From NCBI GenBank assembly GCA_002733715.2, contig NVWQ02000064.1:1587-65586 (forward strand): a DNA stretch of 64,000 bases, in the 5' to 3' direction. Below, piece after piece: positions 22,574 through 34,332 of this stretch. Below the pieces are notes generated by a model. The model was given only the letters and a program-made list of their open reading frames with translations, had not been told where the DNA came from and made no database searches. This DNA is from Methylophaga sp. Lineage in GTDB: Bacteria; Pseudomonadota; Gammaproteobacteria; Nitrosococcales; Methylophagaceae. Numbering within the stretch: position 1 is the stretch's first letter; each line of letters starts with the position of its first letter. The position numbers and the translations under genes are program-made.

Positions 22574-25099
22574 TTAGTGGTGCCATAGTATTAGGTTCTG
22601 CTCTGCTGGAATTTGTGCATCTGCGTGGTAAGGCACCACGCGTGGCGTAAACATATTTGGATCCAATCTTGTTTCAATATCAGCCTGATAACAATAACCA
22701 TGAATAGCACCGCTAATTTTTTCATGGCATTGGCATTGGATAACTAAAGGTGCATTATTTATTACCAAATCAGAATAAAGCTCCACTTGAACTTCATCTG
22801 GAGATATTTCACCTAAATAAATATGTATTTTAAATAAGTGCCCTGCATCACTTTTTGTTATCTCTAAATTGCTAAAATGAATTTGTTCCCAATGTTGTTG
22901 AAGTCTATGACTCCAGTCAAATAATTGTTTGGCAATTTCACCCTTGTTAGATTCACGCTGTTTGTATGCGACATGAGCTGGATGATAAAATTTTTCTACA
23001 TACTCGCGTACCATACGATTACTGCTAAATTGAGGAGCCAAGGTCATCAAGCTATTTCTGACAAGGCGCAACCATTGTCGAGGAATTCCTTGTGCATCTC
23101 GATTATAAAATAACGGAATAATTTCATTTTCTAGTCGTTGATAAAGCTGTTCAGCTTCGACATGATCCCAATCTAAACTAGAACCATGTTCTTGGCCATC
23201 GCCAACAAACCACCCAACATTTTCAGAAAAAGCCTCTGCCCACCATCCATCTAATTCAGATAAATTCAAACCACCATTAGCTAGAATCTTCATGCCACTA
23301 GTGCCACACGCCTCCCATGGACGGCGCGGAGTGTTAATCCAAACATCAACGCCTTGCACTAAATGCTGTGCTAGCGCAATATCATAATCTTCGAGGAACA
23401 CGACGTGTCCCCGAATACTAGGATCACTCACAAAGTCTATCCATTGCTTAATCATTAACTGACCATTAGCATCACTTGGATGAGCCTTGCCTGCAATAAT
23501 CAATTGCACAGGCCTAGTATTATTCGTTAATAAACGAATCAGCCGCGCTTTATCATGTAAAAGTAGATTAGGACGTTTATAGGTAGCAAATCGTCGAGCA
23601 AAACCAAGTGTTAAAGCGTTGGGATCTAACACCTGCTCTGTTTCATCGATTTGTTCAGGTGATGCCCCTATTTGCCCCATCTGGATGGCTAAACGTTTTC
23701 GTGCATAGTGAAGAAGATCTTCTCGTTCTTTTGTGCGTAACGTCCATAATGTCTCGTCACTAATTGCTTGAATAGAATGATGTAAGCTTTCTGTATTGCC
23801 TAGCCAGCGTTGTTTTCCACAAGCGTCAGTCCATAGTTTATCTGCCCATGATGAATCCCACGAAGGCACATGAATACCATTGGTGACATGACTTACAGGC
23901 ACCTCATTTTTTGGCCAGCGAGGATACAGATTTTTAAATAACTGACGGCTCACTTTGCCATGAAGCTCACTTACGCCATTACTACGAGCACAGCCTCTCA
24001 TGGCAAGATAAGCCATATTAAAGGGTTCAGAAGTATCGTTAGGATTTTCACGACCTAAAGCTAGAAGCTGTTGTAAAGTTAACCCTGTCTTGCTCAAAAA
24101 GTTATGAAATATTGGAAAGTATTTTTCAATCAACTGAGGTTGAAAAGTGTCAAAACCGGCGACGACCGGGGTGTGAGTTGTGAAGATATTACCTGCACGC
24201 GTTGCCCAGACGGCCTCTTGAAAAGAACACTCTTTTTGTTCCATATATTGGCGCGCACGCTCTAAAACAACAAAGGCAGCATGACCTTCATTAAGATGGC
24301 AAACAGAAATATCATCTCCTATCGCATCGAGTAGTCGCCAGCCACCAATACCTAACACTAATTCTTGTAGAAAACGTAATTCATTATTACCCCCATATAG
24401 TTTACTAGTGATACCTCGATCAAGAGGACTATTAATGGGATCATTACTATCCAGCAAATACAACTGAACTCGACCTACATTAACCTGCCAGACACGTAAC
24501 ATTAATTTTCTGCCAGGTAGGTTTAAGGTGATATATAAACACTCGCCATTTTCTTTACATAATGGCTGAATAGGTAACGTTGAAGGCTCATTGTATGGGT
24601 AAATTGCAAGTTGATGACCTTGCGCATCTAGCATTTGTCGGAAATAACCTTCTTGATAAAGTAAACCAATACCTATAACGGTCAGCCCCAGGTCGCTGGC
24701 CGTTTTAAGGTAGTCACCAGCTAAAATCCCTAAGCCTCCAGCATAAATAGGAAGTGCTTCACCAAGGCCAAATTCCATACTAAAGTAGGCAACTTTACCA
24801 ATATCTAAGTCAGTTTTATTTTCATCATACCAACTACCCGTAGATAGATAGCTTGTTCGTTCTTCAGTAAGCCGGTTTAATTCCTGACAAAATTCTTCAT
24901 CTTCAGCAAGCTGTTGCAATCGCTGTTTTGAAAGGTGCTGTAATAACGTCCATGGATTTTTAGTACGTTCCCACGTTTCCTCATCTAGCATACGCCATAA
25001 TACATCGGCCTTATGGCTCCAAGTCCAGCGTAAATCTAAAACTAAGTCACTAAGAGTCTGCAGATTTTGTGGTAAATCTGCTGGAAAAAAGAATGACAT
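22574..25099 (-). CDS. glgP: Alpha-glucan (glycogen/maltodextrin) phosphorylase, long alpha-glucan-family type
   Basis: 841 aa. Recognised motifs include LDLRWTWSH at the N-terminus, GGLGILAGDYLK, and EACGTSGMK (PLP lysine region). Confidence 0.85.
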   Translation of the reverse strand: MSFFFPADLPQNLQTLSDLVLDLRWTWSHKADVLWRMLDEETWERTKNPWTLLQHLSKQRLQQLAEDEEFCQELNRLTEERTSYLSTGSWYDENKTDLDIGKVAYFSMEFGLGEALPIYAGGLGILAGDYLKTASDLGLTVIGIGLLYQEGYFRQMLDAQGHQLAIYPYNEPSTLPIQPLCKENGECLYITLNLPGRKLMLRVWQVNVGRVQLYLLDSNDPINSPLDRGITSKLYGGNNELRFLQELVLGIGGWRLLDAIGDDISVCHLNEGHAAFVVLERARQYMEQKECSFQEAVWATRAGNIFTTHTPVVAGFDTFQPQLIEKYFPIFHNFLSKTGLTLQQLLALGRENPNDTSEPFNMAYLAMRGCARSNGVSELHGKVSRQLFKNLYPRWPKNEVPVSHVTNGIHVPSWDSSWADKLWTDACGKQRWLGNTESLHHSIQAISDETLWTLRTKEREDLLHYARKRLAIQMGQIGASPEQIDETEQVLDPNALTLGFARRFATYKRPNLLLHDKARLIRLLTNNTRPVQLIIAGKAHPSDANGQLMIKQWIDFVSDPSIRGHVVFLEDYDIALAQHLVQGVDVWINTPRRPWEACGTSGMKILANGGLNLSELDGWWAEAFSENVGWFVGDGQEHGSSLDWDHVEAEQLYQRLENEIIPLFYNRDAQGIPRQWLRLVRNSLMTLAPQFSSNRMVREYVEKFYHPAHVAYKQRESNKGEIAKQLFDWSHRLQQHWEQIHFSNLEITKSDAGHLFKIHIYLGEISPDEVQVELYSDLVINNAPLVIQCQCHEKISGAIHGYCYQADIETRLDPNMFTPRVVPYHADAQIPAEQNLILWHH

Positions 25100-25205: not shown

Positions 25206-25223
25206 CTGTCATTTAGGTGACAG
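25206..25223. promoter_or_regulatory. Crp/Fnr-family-type palindrome CTGTCA-N6-TGACAG with a downstream -10
   Basis: Perfect 6-bp arms. A TATAAT lies at 25244-25249. If the TSS is about 25256, the dyad centre (25214.5) sits at -41.5, a class II activator position. A GGAGG RBS at 25262-25266 precedes the ATG at 25273. Confidence 0.5.
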
Positions 25224-25272: not shown

Positions 25273-25677
25273 ATGTTATTTGGATTATTATTCATCTGGA
25301 TCATCAGTACGGTTGGTTTGCTACTTGTCACTAAAATTGTACCTGGGGTACGAGCACACTCTATTGGTGACTTATTTATAGCAGCATTGATACTAGGATT
25401 CATCAATGCTTTTATACGTCCATTATTATGGGTGTTAACCTTGCCTTTAACTGTATTATCCTTTGGATTATTTGCCTTATTTATAAATGCCTTTATGATC
25501 CAAATTACAGCAATGATAGTGTCTGGTTTTGAAGTGGATGACTTCCCCAATGCCTTTATGGCAGCGATAATAATGGTGTTATTAGCCATTGCCGGGTTTA
25601 TTTTTGTGGAATGGTTTTTATTTGGTAGTGTATTTTGGGTTAACTTTAATACTAGTCATTTAGGTCTTGGAATGTAA
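25273..25677 (+). CDS. DUF360 / holin-4_2-family small membrane protein
   Basis: 134 aa with four TM segments. LILGFINAFIRPLLWVLTLPLTVLSFGLFALFINAFMI is typical of PF04020. A TAATG overlap joins it to ackA. Confidence 0.7.
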   Translation: MLFGLLFIWIISTVGLLLVTKIVPGVRAHSIGDLFIAALILGFINAFIRPLLWVLTLPLTVLSFGLFALFINAFMIQITAMIVSGFEVDDFPNAFMAAIIMVLLAIAGFIFVEWFLFGSVFWVNFNTSHLGLGM

Positions 25678-26876
25678 TGAAAGTAAATAAATCATTACAA
25701 ACTGTTTTAGTTATCAACAGTGGCTCATCAAGCCTAAAATTCTCACTGTTTTTAATTAAAAACCCTACCAATCTAAAGTTATTATATAAAGGCGAGATAA
25801 CACATATAGGGGAAAATAATAGCTCGTTTTCTGTTCACGACAACGAAACCCAGACAATACATCGGGCAATTGATGCCAACGATCATAAGCAGGCACTACA
25901 GCAATTTTTCCATTGGTTTAACAACGATACGCAATCATTAGAAATTGTAGCTGTAGGCCACCGTATTGTTCATGGTGGAATAAAGCTTCACCAACCAACA
26001 TTACTTTCAGAACAGGTTATTGATTACTTAAAAACACTGATCCCCTTAGCACCAAACCATCAGCCTGCCAATTTACAAGCTGTAGATTTACTGAATAAAC
26101 TTCAACCTACCCTTCCTCAAATAGCTTGTTTTGATACGGCATTTCATGCAAGCAGGCCAGATGTTGAGCAGTTTTTTGCCTTACCAAAAATACCTGCATT
26201 GAAAGATATACGGCGATATGGATTTCATGGTTTATCTTATGAATATATTGCCTCTGTATTGCCAGATTATCTAGGTGAACAGGCTCAAGGAAAAATCATT
26301 GTGGCACATCTAGGCTATGGAGCCAGCTTATGTGCAATTAAAAATCGTCGTAGTATGGCGACAACGATGACGTTTACTCCCTTAGACGGTATTCCAATGG
26401 CAACGCGTAGTGGCTCCATTGATCCCGCAGTTGTTTTGTATCTACAGCAACAAGGTATGACAAATCAGCAAATTTCAGATTTATTATATTTTCAATCAGG
26501 TTTATTAGGCGTTTCAGGCATCAGTGGCGACCTTCAAACCTTATTGAACAAACCTACACCAGAATCACGCTTTGCTATTGAATTATTTATACACAATATA
26601 GTACGCGCTATTGGTTCATTGGCAGCCACACTAGGTGGGCTAGACGCACTGATCTTTACAGGTGGAATAGGTGAAAATGAAATTGGCATCAGGGCTGCGA
26701 TTGCTGAAAAATGTAAGTGGCTTGGATTGAAGATAAATGCAGAAAGTAATGAGCAAAACAAACCTTGTATTTCACATCAAGATAGTAAGCTATCTGCTTG
26801 GGTAATAAGAACAAATGAAGAGTTAATCATTGCTCAATACACGCTTGCCACATTAAATAAACACGATAAGGATTAA
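25677..26876 (+). CDS. ackA: Acetate kinase
   Basis: 399 aa with [21 protein letters not shown], and the FHGLSYEY and TGGIGEN motifs. Confidence 0.9.
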
Positions 26877-26878
26877 CA

Positions 26879-29281
26879 ATGATACCTACAAATTTTACCA
26901 TTACAGAACAACCTTTATCTGCAAATGAATTAGGCAAAATTGATGCTTGGTGGCGAGCGGCAAACTATCTTTCAATTGGGCAAATATATTTATTGGATAA
27001 TCCTTTGTTAGAAGCGCCTCTTTCTTTAGCTCATATTAAACCTCGCTTGCTCGGACATTGGGGCACAACACCAGGCTTAAACCTTATTTATACACATCTT
27101 AATCGTGTGATTAAATCCCAAGACTTAAATATGATTTACATCACCGGCCCTGGTCATGGTGCGCCAGGTATTATTGCCAATACTTATCTTGAAGGCAGTT
27201 ATACCGATTTATATCCTAATATCACTCAAAATAAATCAGGTTTGCAACACCTATTTAAGCAATTTTCTTTTCCTGGCGGTATCCCCAGCCATACTGCGCC
27301 TGAAACACCCGGCTCAATTCATGAAGGTGGTGAACTTGGTTATTCGCTCAGTCACGCATTTGGTGCTGCGTTTGATAATCCTGATCTAATAGTGACGTGT
27401 GTAGTGGGCGATGGCGAAGCTGAAACAGGTCCGGCAGCAACAGCATGGCATTCTAATAAGTTTCTCAATCCTAAACGCGATGGTGCAGTATTACCTATAT
27501 TGCATCTTAATGGCTATAAAATTGCTAATCCAACAGTATTAGCTCGTATTAGTAGCGAAGAATTGGTAAACCTTTTCAGAGGCTATGGTTATAAACCTTA
27601 TTTGGTTGAGGGCGCTGAACCTTCATCCGTACATCAAGCAATGGCTGCAACCTTAGATGCGGTTATTGCTGAAATCAAAAACATTCAACACAATGCTCGA
27701 CAATCCGGTGATTCTACTCGGCCTCTTTGGCCTATGATTATTTTACGGACCCCTAAAGGTTGGACTTGTCCTAAAGAGCTTGATGGTTTAAGACTAGAAG
27801 ACTACTGGCGAGCTCACCAAGTGCCATTTGCTGAGTTGGCTGAAAAACCAGATCATATTCAAACATTAGAAAAGTGGATGAAAAGTTATCATCCTGAACA
27901 ATTATTTGATCATCAGGGGCGACTGAAAGAAGATATTGCCAGTCTTGCACCTGAAGGACAACGCCGTATGGGATCGAATCCTCACACTAATGGCGGCTTA
28001 ATGCTACGTGACCTTTTGTTACCAGATTATCGAGATTACGCTGTGAAGGTTGCTACACCCGGGACTATTTTAGGTGAGGCAACACGTAAAATGGGCGAAT
28101 ATCTCCGTGATGTGATGACGTTAAACGATCAATATTCAAATTTCCGAATTATGGGCCCAGATGAGACTAAATCTAACCGCCTAGGTGCTGTATTAGATGT
28201 AACCAATCGTAGTTGGATGGCTGAAACATTCAGTTATGATGACCATCTAGCTGCAGATGGTAGGGTGATGGAAATTTTATCAGAACATACCTGTGAGGGC
28301 TGGTTAGAAGGCTATTTATTGACTGGGCGGCATGGACTGTTTTCATGTTATGAAGCTTTTATTCATATCATTGACTCCATGTTCAATCAACATGCTAAAT
28401 GGCTTAAAGTCAGCAAAGAAATTGCTTGGCGACGCCCTATCGCCTCACTAAATATTTTACTTACTTCTCATGTTTGGCGACAAGATCACAATGGGTTCTC
28501 ACATCAAGACCCAGGTTTTATTGGTCATGTGATCAATAAAAAATCAGAGATTATACGTGTTTATCTGCCAGCTGATGCCAATACACTGCTTTGTGTGACA
28601 CAGCATTGTTTACAAAGTCGTGATCGTGTCAATGTTATTGTCGCTGGCAAACAGCCAGAACTACAATGGCTCGATATGGATGCAGCAACTCGCCATTGTC
28701 AAACAGGTATCGGTATTTGGGAATGGGCTAGTAATGATAAAGATAGTGAGCCTGATGTTGTTATGGCTTGTGCAGGAGATATCCCCACGCTTGAAACATT
28801 AGCTGCTGTCAAAATTCTTAATGAACATTTACCTGAATTAACAATAAGGGTGGTCAATATTGTTGACTTGATGACATTGGAGTCTAAAGAGCAGCACCCT
28901 AGTGGTCTTAATGACAAAGATTACGATGATCTATTTCCAACTAACATACCTGTTATTTTTGCATTCCATGGTTATCCTTGGCTTATTCATCGCTTGACCT
29001 ACCAACGCCACAATCATGATGATATTCATGTTCATGGTTATAAAGAAGAAGGCACAACAACAACACCGTTTGATATGACAGTATTGAATGATTTAGATCG
29101 TTTTCATTTAGTTAAAAATGTCGTTGATCGTATTGAAGGACTGGGTTCGAAACGTGCTTACTTAAAACAATTAATGCGTGACAAGTTGATTGAACACAAG
29201 CAATACATCTTTGACCATGGTCAGGATTTACCTGAAATTAGAGAGTGGCGCTGGCAAGCTAACGAAACTAAAAGAAGCTAA
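26879..29281 (+). CDS. xfp: Xylulose-5-P/fructose-6-P phosphoketolase
   Basis: 800 aa with [34 protein letters not shown], and GDGEAETGP (TPP binding). The length is typical of Xfp. Confidence 0.9.
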
Positions 29282-29284
29282 AAT

Positions 29285-30823
29285 ATGAAGAACAAAACAT
29301 CAACTATGCCCTCGCTTAAACTTCGCCGTGTTGCTATAGATACGTATAAAGAAAATGTAGCTTATTTACATCGCGACTGTCTTCTTTATCGAACAGAAGG
29401 ATTTCAAGCGCTTAGCAAGATTGAAATTCACCGTATAGGCAATGGAAATCCTGTTATAGCGGTATTGAATATTGTTGATGATGAAATAATTACGGCACCG
29501 GATCAATTAGGATTAAGTGAGCAAGTTTTTCAGCAACTTAATCTTGCTGAAGGTACTGAGGTCTTTATTAGCCATGCGTCACCACCTTCATCACTTAAAT
29601 CTGTTCACCTTAAAATTGCGGGCGAACGCCTGAGTTATGATGCCTATCATAAAATTATCCAAGACATAGTCAATAACCGTTATTCAAAGATTGAAATTAC
29701 AGCATTTTTAGTGGGTTGTGCCGAATCCGGTATGGAGCGTGACGAAATTTTAAGTTTAACTCGAGCGATGGTAAATACAGGGGAACGACTTGATTGGGGA
29801 GAGGATCTTGTCTCAGATAAACACTGTATTGGCGGTATTCCTGGCAATAGAACGACCATGTTAATCGTTCCTATTGTTGCAGCCCATGGCATGTTAATAC
29901 CTAAAACATCAAGCCGAGCCATTACCTCTCCTGCAGGCACAGCAGATACGATGGAAGTATTAGCTAATGTAAATCAGTCGCAACAGAAACTCCGTAAAAT
30001 GGTGCATCAACAACGTGCTTTCATAGTATGGGGAGGCACCGCTAATTTAGCGCCTGCAGATGATATTCTAATTGCTGTTGAGCGCCCTCTTTCTATGGAT
30101 TCAACTGGGCAAATGGTGGCGTCAATACTCTCAAAAAAAGTGGCTGCAGGTGCAACGCATTTATTAATTGATATTCCTATAGGCAAAACGGCAAAAGTTC
30201 GTAACTCAACTGAAGGCCAAAAGCTACGAAAAACATTTCAATATGTTGGTGACAAAATAGGCCTGCATATTGAGGTGGTTTTGACCAATGGTAGCCAGCC
30301 TATTGGCCGTGGAATAGGCCCTGTACTTGAAACAATAGATGTGATGAAAGTGCTTGAAAATGATCCCGAAGCCCCGCATGATCTACGCGAAAAATCATTA
30401 CAACTTGCAGGGCGAATAATCGAGTTTGATTTTGATGTGCGTGGCGGCCAAGGCTATGAAATTGCCCGTGATATTCTTGAGTCTGGGCGAGCCTTAGAAA
30501 AAATGAATGCCATAATCAATTCTCAGGGCAGAAATTTAGTCCTCCCAGAATTAGGTAAGTTACAGCATCAGATTGTTGCTTCTAAAGATGGCTTTATTGA
30601 AGCAATTGATAATCTTAAAATAGCGAGAATTGCACGGCTAGCAGGTGCGCCTATGGATAAATCTGCTGGAATATATCTGAATAAAAAAGTAGGCGATAAC
30701 GTTAAAAAAGGAGAAGTTTTATTTACCATTTACGCCCAATTTAATGCTGACTTTAAATTTGCAATAGCAGCAGCAGATAAAGAACCCTCTTATTCAATTC
30801 AAAGCGAGCTTAACCATGACTGA
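29285..30823 (+). CDS. Thymidine-phosphorylase-family enzyme with an N-terminal extension (archaeal AMP-phosphorylase-like)
   Basis: 512 aa with a ~90-aa extra N-terminal domain (LKLRRVAIDTYKENVAYLHRDC...). It is followed by glycosyltransferase-family-3 motifs (DKHCIGGIPGNRTT, TSPAGTADTME) and a PYNP C-terminal domain. Confidence 0.7.
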   Translation: MKNKTSTMPSLKLRRVAIDTYKENVAYLHRDCLLYRTEGFQALSKIEIHRIGNGNPVIAVLNIVDDEIITAPDQLGLSEQVFQQLNLAEGTEVFISHASPPSSLKSVHLKIAGERLSYDAYHKIIQDIVNNRYSKIEITAFLVGCAESGMERDEILSLTRAMVNTGERLDWGEDLVSDKHCIGGIPGNRTTMLIVPIVAAHGMLIPKTSSRAITSPAGTADTMEVLANVNQSQQKLRKMVHQQRAFIVWGGTANLAPADDILIAVERPLSMDSTGQMVASILSKKVAAGATHLLIDIPIGKTAKVRNSTEGQKLRKTFQYVGDKIGLHIEVVLTNGSQPIGRGIGPVLETIDVMKVLENDPEAPHDLREKSLQLAGRIIEFDFDVRGGQGYEIARDILESGRALEKMNAIINSQGRNLVLPELGKLQHQIVASKDGFIEAIDNLKIARIARLAGAPMDKSAGIYLNKKVGDNVKKGEVLFTIYAQFNADFKFAIAAADKEPSYSIQSELNHD

Positions 30824-31703
30824 TTCAACATTATTACTGGGGTTTCCTGAATATCATTCACAGGCACGTCGTTTAGCTAATGCCTCTGCTTTACCTTATG
30901 CTGAGGTTAAAATCCATCGTTTCCCTGATGGCGAAAGTAAAATAACACTTCCTGCACAGTTGCCAAAACATATTATTATTTGTCGTAGCTTAAATGCCCC
31001 TAATGAGAAGTTACTTGAATTATTTATGGTCGCAGCAAATGTGCGAGATCAAGGTGCTAAAACTATTAGCTTAATCTCCCCTTACCTTTGTTATATGCGT
31101 CAGGATAAAGCATTTCATACAGGCGAAGTGATAAGTCAACACGTTATTGGTAATATGTTGGCAAGTTATTTTGACAACATTTTAACTGTCGATGCACACT
31201 TACACCGCATATCACAACTGTCACAGGCGATACCTACCAAAAAAGCGATTAATCTCACCGCAACAGAGCCCATGGCTCATTTTATCCAAAAAAATATTAA
31301 ACAGCCCTTTCTTATCGGACCTGATGAGGAATCAGAGCAATGGGTTGCTGATATCGCCTCTCATTATAATATGGATTATAGTGTCGCCACCAAACAACGC
31401 TATGGCGACAAAAACGTTAAGGTTTCACTACCTGATGCTGACTATCGAAACCGTAATATCATCTTGGTTGACGATATAGCCAGTACAGGCAAAACATTAT
31501 TAGCAGCCACTAAAGAGTTGGCGAGATTTTCTCCAGCGTCTGTTTCCGTGTTAGTAACACATGCCTTATTTATTGATGATGCCCTAGCAGAATTAGAGCG
31601 TGAAAATATAAGTAATATTTGGAGCTGTGACACGATTCCTCATCACACAAACAGTGTCTTTCTGGCCGCTTTTTTTGCCAAAGCACTTGAGGAGATATTC
31701 TAA
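30816..31703 (+). CDS. Ribose-phosphate pyrophosphokinase (PRPP synthetase)-like protein
   Basis: 295 aa with the PRPP-binding loop IILVDDIASTGKTL and a YLCYMRQDK region. An 8-nt overlap (ATGACTGA) joins it to the preceding gene. Confidence 0.7.
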   Translation: MTDSTLLLGFPEYHSQARRLANASALPYAEVKIHRFPDGESKITLPAQLPKHIIICRSLNAPNEKLLELFMVAANVRDQGAKTISLISPYLCYMRQDKAFHTGEVISQHVIGNMLASYFDNILTVDAHLHRISQLSQAIPTKKAINLTATEPMAHFIQKNIKQPFLIGPDEESEQWVADIASHYNMDYSVATKQRYGDKNVKVSLPDADYRNRNIILVDDIASTGKTLLAATKELARFSPASVSVLVTHALFIDDALAELERENISNIWSCDTIPHHTNSVFLAAFFAKALEEIF

Positions 31704-31705
31704 AT

Positions 31706-34332
31706 ATGACAATACAAATTGATACTAAAGCTACCGATGAATACAGTGGTCAAAATGTTGAAGACATATTAAGAAGTTGGTCAATTGACGTTGAGTATGG
31801 TCTCAATGAAAGTCAAGTTAAAACAAGGTTTGAACACTTTGGTGCTAATGAAATTAAAACTAAGGAAGAACCCTTATGGCACCGCATATTTCGGCGTTTT
31901 TGGGGGCCTATTCCATGGATGATTGAAATTGCAGCTATTCTTTCTGCTGTGGTACAAAAATGGGAAGACTTTATTATTATTAGTGTCATGCTACTGATCA
32001 ATGCAGTTTTAGATTTTTTTCAAGAACATCGTGCATTAAATGCACTCAAAGCATTGAAACAGCAAGTTACACTTAATGTGAACGTGTTAAGACAGGGGCA
32101 TTTTATTGCTATACCCTCTTCTGAATTGGTACCTGGTGATATTGTTCACTTACGTATTGGCGATATTATTCCAGCGGATGTTCACCTTTTTGATGGTGAC
32201 TATCTATCAATTGATGAATCTTCATTAACAGGCGAATCATTACCGGTAACAAAGCGTCCCAACGATGTCGCTTATGCCAACACAATTATCAAACAAGGTG
32301 AAATGCGAGCCCTTGTCGTCAATACAGGCGTAAATACTCGATTTAACTCAGTTGCATCATTAGTTGCTAAAGCATCATTAGAAGAGCGTAGCCATTTTCA
32401 AAAAATGGTTATTCAAATAGGTGATTTTTTAATTATCTTATCACTCTCATTAGTGTCACTGGTCATCATCGTCGGATTATTCCGACATGAAGATTTTATG
32501 GATCTAACCCGTTTTGCATTGGTGTTAACTGTCGCAGCTATCCCAGTCGCTTTACAGCAGTATTATCGGTAACCATGGCTGTAGGGGCGCTTAATTTAGC
32601 TCGAAAAAAAGCCATTGTTTCTCGTCTTACTGCAATCGAAGAATTGGCAGGTGTTGATATTTTCTGTTCAGATAAAACGGGAACATTAACCAAAAATGAA
32701 ATGAGCGTCGCCCCCCCAATACTTTGTGATGGACACTCAGAACAAGAGTTGTTTTTCTATGCGGTGCTTGCCTCACGCAAAGAAAACAATGATCCTATAG
32801 AAGCGCCTCTTTTTTATTATTTAGCACAACATTTTCCTGATAGCAGTTGGCAGCAGTGGCAACAAAAAAGCTTTACGCCTTTTGATCCAATAAGCAAACA
32901 GACTTCTGCAGTAGTCAGCAAAGATAATGTTCAACTTACTGTTTTTAAGGGCGCGCCTCAAGTAATACTAAATATGACAGAGATGTCTGATAACGAGCTG
33001 ATTGCTATTAATAAAAGTATTGACTCGCTGGCTAGTAAGGGCTACCGAACGCTGGCAGTGGCAATTCAATATGAGGGTAAAAGTGTTGATTTGATCGGCC
33101 TTATTCCTCTTATCGATCCGCCGCGAGAAGATTCAAAACAAGTTATAAAAGATATGCGTAAATATGGTGTAGAAGTCAAAATGATTACAGGTGACAATAT
33201 CGCTATTGCACGTGAAATTGGTCATATGTTGGGTTTTAAAAAACGTGCCGTACGCTCGACACAAGTGACCGGAAAGTCAGGTCAGGAAATTATAGAGTTA
33301 TCACGCTCCTTATCGCACGCCATTTATCATAAACTGAATCCGAATGTATCTCATAAAGAGGCCCAACATTTTGCTGATACAGTTATAGAAGAACTGGATC
33401 AAATTTATGATACTAGTCTGCTAAAACAACAATTTATTCATACCCATGAATCAGCATTGGTGGCAATGATTGAATCGGTCGATATTTTTGCAGAAGTATT
33501 ACCAGAAGATAAATATGCCATTGTTGATACACTACAAAAAGCCGGGCACATTGTTGGTATGACAGGTGATGGAGTCAATGATGCTCCCGCGCTAAAAAAA
33601 GCAGACTGTGGTTTTGCTGTGTCGAATGCAACGGATGCCGCCCGAGCTGCCGCAGATATCATTTTAACGGAGCCTGGATTATCAGTGATTAACCATGCTA
33701 TTGAACAATCGCGCTACACATTTGAACGAATGAAAAGTTATGCCATGTTTCGTATTGCTGAAACTATTCGTATTATCATATTTATTTCGTTAAGCATTAT
33801 ATTGTTTAATTTTTACCCTCTTACTGCCTTGATGGTTATATTGCTAGCCTTACTGAATGATCTACCTATTATGGCTATTGCCTACGACAATAATGAATTA
33901 GACAGCAACCCTGTACGTTGGAATATGAAAGAATTATTTACCGTTGCCACTGTTTTAGGTATCACCGGTGTTTCAGCTTCATTTTTATTATTTTTTATAC
34001 TCCGTCAGTATGGATTAGAAGAAAATATCATTCAAACAATTATCTTTCTTAAACTGCTGATTGCAGGACATAGCACTATTTTTGTTACTCGAAATAAAGG
34101 TTGGTTTTGGGATACGCCCTTACCTTCGCCTATATTGCTTACTGCTATTTTTGGTACTGAGATTATCGGTACCTTATTTGCTGTGAACGGTATTTTTGTG
34201 ACCGCTATCAGTTGGCAATTTGCACTGTTAGCTTGGGGATATGCATTTATGGAATTTTTGTTAAATGACGTTGTAAAAATAGGTCTCTATAAACTTATCA
34301 ATGATCGAGAAACTGCCGCTCTTTCAATCTAA
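31706..34332 (+). pseudogene. P3A-type (plasma-membrane H+-ATPase-like) P-type ATPase split by a 1-nt frameshift
   Basis: ORF 31706..32572 ends ...AAIPVALQQYYR*. ORF 32575..34332 starts MAVGALNLARKKAIVSRLTAIEELAGVDIFCSDKTGTLT. Adding one C at about 32555 (TTA CAG -> TTA CCA G) restores the family-typical IPVALPAVLSVTMAVGA. Other motifs present: FWGPIPWMIEIAAILS, TGES, MTGDGVNDAPALKKAD, and LNDLPIMAIAYDN. Confidence 0.85.

Follow-up and report, generated by a model that had tools for sequence, protein, structure and literature searches.

Two overlapping genes in a 64,000-nucleotide stretch of DNA from Methylophaga sp. (contig NVWQ02000064.1; the whole stretch is called the window below) encode a 512-aa protein of the thymidine phosphorylase (TP) family and PrsL, a short paralogue of phosphoribosyl pyrophosphate (PRPP) synthase (Prs). 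We found that the pair recurs as a conserved module in roughly one in ten of the Pseudomonadota sampled, not peculiar to this operon, and that its first gene, judged by sequence and modelled structure, encodes a full-length look-alike of the AMP/nucleoside monophosphate (NMP) phosphorylase of Thermococcus. We consider it moderately probable that the pair is a phosphorolytic module for the salvage of nucleotide ribose under low oxygen or energy stress. Phosphorolysis of nucleotides to ribose-1,5-bisphosphate (R15P) is regarded as a speciality of archaea (and of the candidate phyla radiation) that is tied to RuBisCO. About one in nine of the sampled Pseudomonadota genomes nevertheless has a close structural relative of the archaeal enzyme—tied to a PRPP-synthase paralogue, not to an isomerase and RuBisCO—and free-living autotrophs, methylotroph relatives and rhizobia are among the carriers. 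Neither gene is new as such, since both belong to large annotated families; a literature search found no biochemical description of their association. New here are the phylum-wide cross-tabulation, a clade of PhnN fusions nested beside the window's clade, the contrast with an archaeal operon, the finding that carriers lack R15P isomerase and seldom have PhnN, a decayed second locus, a shared operator and two phosphoketolase branches beside the pair.

Identity of the two proteins

Both genes were taken from a mechanical list of open reading frames (ORFs; 29285–30823, + strand, 512 aa, ATG start; and 30816–31703, + strand, 295 aa, ATG start). Read directly in the sequence, they overlap by 8 nt at 30816–30823 (ATGACTGA): the junction is ...ACC ATG ACT GAT..., and the second gene starts, at this ATG, 5 nt ahead of the TGA stop of the first. 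This overlap, already described in an earlier note on this DNA, indicates that the two genes are probably translationally coupled. The PrsL start at 30816 is backed by homologues, which have their first residue at the same aligned position; for the phosphorylase, 29285 and the ATG in frame with it at 29306 are both possible starts (505 aa in the database copy of the protein).

The phosphorylase exceeded the cut-offs of both ‘thymidine phosphorylase family protein’ models (NF003338, 700.7 bits versus 434; TIGR02645, 623.5 bits versus 434.6) and came just below that of the AMP_phos equivalog TIGR03327 (522.5 bits versus 535); each of the three matches spans residues ~10–509, the extra N-terminal domain included. 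Its top sequence match in the Protein Data Bank (PDB) was the AMP phosphorylase of Thermococcus kodakarensis (4GA5/4GA4, E = 1.9e-105), and its identity to the Thermococcus AMP phosphorylase is 39–44%. Around the phosphate, ribose and base sites, its motifs match those of this Pi-using enzyme residue for residue, with identical or conservatively exchanged amino acids. An AlphaFold (AF2) model built from an alignment of 28 homologues (pLDDT 93.6) superposed on 4GA5_A with TMq 0.91, TMt 0.94 and a root-mean-square deviation of 2.0 Å over 503 columns (39% identity); nucleoside phosphorylases reached TMq ~0.7 at 23–28% identity, and TrpD a TM of ~0.5 at 15%. Given this superposition, the N-terminal domain is real and of archaeal type. 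The identity put forward in the earlier note—a TP-family protein like AMP phosphorylase, N-terminal domain included—is thus borne out by both the models and the fold, and in the profile comparison that it had proposed the protein stayed below the cut-offs of all classical thymidine phosphorylase models and narrowly below that of the AMP phosphorylase model.

Two other identities were tried and rejected. For a classical DeoA/Pdp enzyme, the scores were 154.3 versus a cut-off of 570.7 (TIGR02643), 226.4 versus 409 (TIGR02644), 210.6 versus 269 (NF004490) and 176.3 versus 559 (NF004747). For TrpD, the match reached 44.3 bits versus a cut-off of 199 and covered the N-terminal half alone. By sequence and model, then, the first gene appears to encode neither a classical thymidine phosphorylase nor TrpD. 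The T. kodakarensis enzyme cleaves AMP, CMP and UMP phosphorolytically to the base and R15P (PMC9700705). That enzyme (TK0352, PDB 4GA4–4GA6) belongs to the pentose bisphosphate pathway or ‘NMP shunt’, and the window's protein shares its three-part architecture of an extra N-terminal domain, a TP helical domain and an alpha/beta domain; the system in the window differs in its bacterial host and in having a Prs-like partner instead of R15P isomerase and type III RuBisCO.

PrsL (30816–31703) exceeded the cut-offs of NF005537 (359.4 bits versus 322) and TIGR01251 (187.2 versus 113), in agreement with the earlier description of a short Prs-like partner. It stayed below those of the class I Prs models (NF002320, 121.2 versus 297; NF003428, 59.4 versus 536) and of the short archaeal Prs equivalog NF002095 (194.9 versus 296). 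The top PDB matches, and nearest characterised group, were Prs chains of ~285 aa (4TWB, 1U9Y and 3LPN), which we take to be the phosphate-independent ‘class III’ Prs of Sulfolobus, Methanocaldococcus and Thermoplasma. PrsL resembles these short archaeal enzymes in length range (~285–295 aa), in best sequence match and in its catalytic motifs; unlike them, it forms a subfamily of its own (NF005537) that is found almost only alongside the phosphorylase. In an alignment of 19 Prs and PrsL sequences (17 homologues from other genomes, one natural fusion, housekeeping Prs included), the FxDGE, PYxxYxRQD and DxH motifs, the KxR loop and the DD..T loop for ribose-5-phosphate (R5P) are invariant, and PrsL looks catalytically competent on this basis. 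Two subfamily signatures, DPHLHR and PDEESxQW, replace the DxHxxQ and PDxG(G/A) of other Prs. An ordinary housekeeping class I prs is encoded elsewhere in the genome (contig C56; NF003428, 540 bits), which makes PrsL an extra, dedicated paralogue.

Conservation of the pair in Pseudomonadota

We surveyed 401 evenly sampled Pseudomonadota genomes, counting a family when it scored over its model cut-off. The phosphorylase was present in 46 genomes, PrsL in 42 and both in 41; the sole genome with PrsL only carries a PrsL copy with an internal stop. Among 42 loci whose neighbourhoods were rebuilt, 35 have PrsL as the next gene downstream of the phosphorylase, on the same strand; in 2 more it lies no further than 6 kb away. 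At least 11 of 25 paired loci show a 4-nt overlap with the upstream gene. The two proteins also occur as a natural PrsL–phosphorylase fusion (P0131), the N-terminal part of which scores 382 bits on NF005537. Co-occurrence, adjacency, overlaps and fusion together exclude a chance neighbourhood. The pair is therefore not local, a point absent from the earlier note. Public relatives of the phosphorylase number more than 8000, the closest named ones being from Methylophaga and Thiotrichales.

These counts bear on the plainest alternative, in which a pyrimidine/thymidine nucleoside phosphorylase and a redundant PRPP synthase are neighbours by accident. Public annotation takes this line, naming the proteins ‘thymidine phosphorylase (family protein)’ and ‘ribose-phosphate diphosphokinase’. 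The first protein nevertheless misses the cut-offs of TIGR02643, TIGR02644 and NF004490, and the presence of both genes in 41 of the 42 PrsL-bearing genomes, their adjacency in 35 of 42 loci, the fusions and the overlaps lie far beyond chance; we give this alternative almost no credence.

The commonest third gene encodes a ~460-aa protein with beta-CASP, RMMBL and metallo-beta-lactamase domains and adjoins the pair in at least 11 of the 42 loci. Homologues of it occur in 26 of 46 phosphorylase-positive versus 50 of 355 phosphorylase-negative genomes. Phosphoketolase-family genes of two different branches adjoin the pair in four other families, acetate kinase lies near it in 3–4 loci and P-type ATPases in 8 other loci. 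As the phosphoketolase and acetate kinase genes (xfp and ackA) stand beside the pair in ~5 of 43 loci, the link with phosphoketolase is recurrent but facultative, which is likewise absent from the earlier note.

Fused relatives and phylogeny

PhnN is the ribose-1,5-bisphosphate phosphokinase, and its product is PRPP. Among the 150 best representatives of the phosphorylase at 50% identity, 15 carry an N-terminal PhnN domain; the seven of these fusions that were scanned against NCBIfam all exceed the TIGR02322 cut-off of 156, at 164–212 bits. Such fusions are common in Bosea, Methylobacterium and Oxalobacteraceae, among others. The fusion representatives P0155, P0126 and P0131 lie on contigs of insufficient length for their gene neighbourhood to be read. 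In a maximum-likelihood tree of 170 rows (outgroup row OUT_L088, an ORF that was extracted wrongly and has a very long branch, is to be disregarded), the PhnN-fused proteins form a single clade (support 99). A clade of 46 rows (support 99) holds this fusion clade together with the window's clade of 17 rows (support 100) and other PrsL-paired proteins, and a clade of 86 rows (support 97) takes in all bacterial paired forms. The position of phosphorylase partner is thus occupied by an R15P kinase in the sister clade and by PrsL in the window's clade. The two partners are alike in this position and in that PRPP is the product of PhnN as well as of Prs enzymes; they differ in that PhnN has an unrelated, guanylate-kinase fold, and in that NadC and an NMT1-type ABC transporter take the place of stress genes in the PhnN-fusion loci.

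Archaeal relatives give a contrasting picture. One of them (P0157) scores 581 bits on TIGR03327, above the AMP_phos cut-off, and lies on a contig (L092) that is archaeal by its TBP, MCM and RFC neighbours. There, an overlapping operon (L092:3933–7488) comprises an e2b2-like gene, a type III RuBisCO gene and the AMP phosphorylase P0157. The e2b2-like protein is unusually short (268 aa) and scores 131 bits versus the R15P-isomerase cut-off of 314. Archaeal relatives therefore appear to adjoin genes of the route from R15P through ribulose-1,5-bisphosphate (RuBP) to carboxylation, the e2b2-like gene being a putative isomerase at most. Intein-bearing sequences of archaeal type branch below the 86-row clade, and P0157 is among these lower branches. 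Several AMP-phosphorylase homologues of 900–1017 aa have an intein (LAGLIDADG endonuclease domain) in the catalytic alpha/beta domain (P0154, P0163, P0165, P0187, P0208, P0213, P0237 and P0247).

A NadC gene precedes the PhnN-fusion genes by 8–20 nt at three loci: L079:7157–10061 (Methylobacterium), L080:7157–10040 (Oxalobacteraceae) and L082:7148–10043 (Bosea). The assignment rests on TIGR00078 (317–327 bits in L080 and L082, the two scanned) and on Pfam QRPTase domains in all three, and NMT1-type ABC transporter genes adjoin the L079 and L080 fusions. NadC and the PhnN fusion could close a cycle in which PRPP is converted to a mononucleotide, the mononucleotide to R15P and R15P back to PRPP; if so, NadC, PhnN and phosphorylase would together drive the decarboxylation of a quinolinate-like acid with ATP.

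The earlier note had left two readings of the pair standing, nucleotide-ribose salvage and a PRPP-dependent ribosylation, as undecidable from the sequence, which now looks too pessimistic. In the second, PrsL would make PRPP and the TP-fold enzyme, acting like TrpD, would ribosylate an unknown base (or, in reverse, form PRPP from NMP and PPi). PRPP is indeed the product of both partner types in the clade, Prs-like and PhnN, and PRPP-using TrpD has the TP fold (structural ranks 20–50). However, the protein scores 44 versus 199 bits on the TrpD model and superposes on TrpD at a TM of 0.5 with 15% identity, compared with 0.91 and 39% for AMP phosphorylase, and its phosphate- and ribose-site motifs match the Pi-using Thermococcus enzyme. 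The TP domain also need not be the transferase, because the PhnN-fusion loci encode a separate PRPP-using enzyme, NadC, next door. We regard a TrpD-like role as improbable. Comparative genomics instead favours nucleotide-ribose salvage, on account of the fusions to an R15P kinase, the archaeal type III RuBisCO operon and the recurrence of the beta-CASP gene and of phosphoketolase beside the pair.

Fate of ribose-1,5-bisphosphate

A model search at E ≤ 1e-70 detected R15P isomerase in none of the 401 Pseudomonadota genomes, all 46 phosphorylase-bearing ones included; as a control, the same model picked up the enzyme in three archaea. PhnN scored over its cut-off in 3 of 15 pair-bearing genomes, drawn from 14 families, and was not found in the genome of the window, where the best match (52 bits) is presumably guanylate kinase. 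If the phosphorylase forms R15P, most carriers would lack a known enzyme to consume it. As PrsL is the only constant companion of the phosphorylase and the known R15P consumers are mostly missing, PrsL presumably acts on the product of the phosphorylase and is the obvious candidate for the missing reaction.

The statement in the earlier note that the window holds neither R15P isomerase nor RuBisCO stands for the window; the genome as a whole has a RuBisCO that is not of type III and an MtnA-like gene. Both figure in a further alternative, an archaeal-style AMP/RuBisCO shunt in which Prs, adenine phosphoribosyltransferase (Apt) and the phosphorylase would lead to R15P, and the MtnA-like isomerase would convert R15P to RuBP for RuBisCO. 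This reading can point to the RuBisCO large subunit and the one IF-2B-family isomerase of the genome, and to the archaeal P0157, which sits in such an operon. Yet the sole IF-2B-family gene is MtnA by score (TIGR00512, 468 bits; 199.6 versus the R15P-isomerase cut-off of 314), and R15P isomerase is missing throughout the survey. The RuBisCO gene, moreover, lies on a different contig (C22) next to a CbbR-like regulator and scores 790.6 bits on the general model and 396 versus a cut-off of 497 on the type III model. We consider the shunt very improbable in this organism.

Regulation and stress association

A perfect palindrome, CTGTCA-N6-TGACAG, lies at 25206–25223 in the intergenic region between glgP and the operon that contains the pair, and is a candidate operator for a regulator of the Crp/Fnr family. 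Its core, TGTCA-N6-TGACA, has seven exact sites in the 2.83-Mb genome, one at the window operon and four in an island on contig C46 (C46:69000–81000), two of which are in promoter regions (those of a unit of universal stress protein (USP) and pseudogene, and of an ATPase). The island encodes a SpoIIAA–USP fusion, a decayed phosphorylase copy, a type II P-type ATPase, a beta-CASP protein, phosphoenolpyruvate synthase (PpsA) and a Crp/Fnr-family regulator (L075:17578–18324). Because the site is common to both, the window operon and the C46 island look like one regulon, and the half-site appears to be neither that of FNR nor that of CRP. In the 500 nt upstream of the phosphorylase at 42 other loci, a search for the FNR box TTGAT-N4-ATCAA and for TGTCA-N6-TGACA gave one FNR-like site, no more than background; the regulatory link is accordingly shown for this genome alone.

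The TP paralogue of the island (C46:66767–68292; L075:6768–8293, minus strand) follows the gene for the SpoIIAA–USP fusion. It is 82% identical over 412 residues and was rejected as a second functional copy, as it has a TGA at the conserved Trp of VWGG and a frameshift near residue 413, and is without PrsL.

In Bradyrhizobium diazoefficiens, the products of bll3117–bll3115 belong to the set of 62 proteins with the strongest induction at 0.5% O2, and the transcripts are induced too; the three are named thymidine phosphorylase family protein, ribose-phosphate pyrophosphokinase and MBL fold metallo-hydrolase, and phosphoketolase is also induced under microoxia (PMC6515984). The gene order of this trio is that of our locus L049. 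A similar cast of stress-island genes is present in the lxa locus of Burkholderia cenocepacia, which comprises USPs, acetate kinase, a metal-dependent RNase, a cation ATPase and Anr/CRP-type regulators (PMC3721108); it resembles the window and C46 loci in this respect, and the main text of that paper names no TP-family or Prs gene. Neither study gives these genes a function (PMC3721108, PMC6515984).

Proposed mechanism

In the salvage reading, oxygen or energy limitation would switch the operon on. NMPs would come mainly from RNA decay, probably, given that the commonest third partner is a beta-CASP, RNase-like gene. The 512-aa enzyme would then convert NMP and Pi to nucleobase and R15P, as homology and structure suggest, and PrsL, going by its association with the phosphorylase, would pass the ribose phosphate on through PRPP into the R5P pool. 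This second step has two forms: PrsL may make PRPP from R15P and ATP (the job of PhnN), or may be a regulation-insensitive PRPP synthase acting on R5P. Because Prs enzymes also work in reverse (PRPP + AMP ↔ R5P + ATP), the sugar can enter the pentose-phosphate pool by either option. In a third step suggested by the operon context, the upstream phosphoketolase would cleave pentose phosphate and acetate kinase would make ATP, which the downstream P-type pump could use to energise the membrane. In this scheme each of the enzymatic steps is an inference, as are the NMP source, the direction of flux and control by low oxygen in this organism.

A bolder form of the salvage reading makes PrsL the missing R15P-consuming enzyme, leading from R15P through PRPP to R5P in a bacterial ‘pentose bisphosphate’ branch instead of serving as a redundant synthase. 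We put this forward tentatively, as a possibility on the doubtful side. If it were true, the energy held in the N-glycosidic bond would be conserved in a phosphoanhydride (net R15P + AMP → R5P + ADP or similar), and RNA would act as an energy store for anaerobic conditions, to be fermented by way of phosphoketolase and acetate kinase. Given its canonical motifs, PrsL could equally be a normal synthase that uses R5P, and the central question about the pair, which the earlier note passes over, is what this Prs-like enzyme does. An answer would put functions to two annotations of the ‘family protein’ kind that are very common, would account for some of the response to low oxygen or dormancy (the use of RNA and AMP when respiration stops) and might let metabolic engineering around phosphoketolase reach PRPP or pentose phosphate at lower cost.

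Several observations weigh against the salvage reading. The phosphorylase narrowly misses the AMP phosphorylase equivalog, and the literature search found no enzyme assay or biochemical study of this bacterial clade or of the pair. PrsL has the ordinary Prs set of ATP and R5P motifs, and its sequence gives no reason to postulate R15P or another new substrate; if PrsL accepts R5P only, the scheme does not explain how R15P becomes its substrate. Among the neighbours, the beta-CASP gene is missing from 20 of the 46 phosphorylase-positive genomes, xfp and ackA accompany the pair at just the few loci counted above, and in this assembly a frameshift interrupts the gene for the operon's terminal pump. 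The equation of the Bradyrhizobium trio with the module, finally, rests on gene names and gene order, not on sequence.

Some of the same observations suit a different function, the buffering of energy charge. Here the phosphorylase would remove AMP in the manner of an AMP nucleosidase and so pull adenylate kinase towards ATP; PrsL would be a plain, unregulated synthase, Apt would rebuild AMP on recovery and ribose would matter little as a source of carbon or energy. Consistent with this, the genome encodes Apt and no AMP nucleosidase, the motifs of PrsL are ordinary and the protein is closer to the short archaeal enzymes than to class I. Membership of a stress island with USPs and PpsA, another AMP-linked enzyme, fits as well, as does the microoxic induction in Bradyrhizobium (PMC6515984). 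What the buffering function leaves out is the fate of R15P; nor does it explain why a special Prs paralogue strictly co-occurs with the phosphorylase although every genome already has prs, or account for the PhnN fusions, the recurrent beta-CASP gene and the phosphoketolase neighbours. We therefore judge it unlikely, and retain nucleotide-ribose salvage as the preferred function of the pair.

Operon layout and further observations

The pair lies within a + strand string of genes at 25273–34332 that, within the window, has no terminator-like site of note between its genes. The first gene (25273–25677) encodes a small membrane protein of the Phage_holin_4_2/DUF360 family (PF04020, 95 bits). The protein has 134 aa, and its gene overlaps ackA by 1 base. 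It is followed by acetate kinase (ackA, 25677–26876; PF00871, 365 bits; TIGR00016, 371 bits) and by phosphoketolase (xfp, 26879–29281; XFP_N, XFP and XFP_C domains; NF003619, 1468 bits), the latter separated by 3 nt from the gene for the AMP/NMP-phosphorylase-like protein (29285–30823; assigned by NF003338, TIGR02645 and the 4GA5 match). After PrsL, the archaeal-type PRPP-synthase paralogue (30816–31703; NF005537), comes a P-type pump 3 nt downstream that resembles plasma-membrane H+-ATPases (31706–34332; TIGR01647). Divergent from the operon, on the − strand, is alpha-glucan phosphorylase (glgP, 22574–25099; TIGR02094, 829.9 bits).

The pump is split into two ORFs in different frames, 31706–32572 (288 aa, 293.7 bits on TIGR01647) and 32575–34332 (585 aa, 566.3 bits). 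The split at 32572/32575 is either a true frameshift or an assembly error; in the first case, the end of the operon that spends energy would be broken.

Beside the pair in three unrelated families (L067:5239–7599, L069:4709–7066 and L071:5531–8200), we also observed a divergent branch of the phosphoketolase family. Its members are ~785–890 aa long and give weak XFP_N and XFP matches and no XFP_C match, and may act on a substrate other than that of canonical Xfp.

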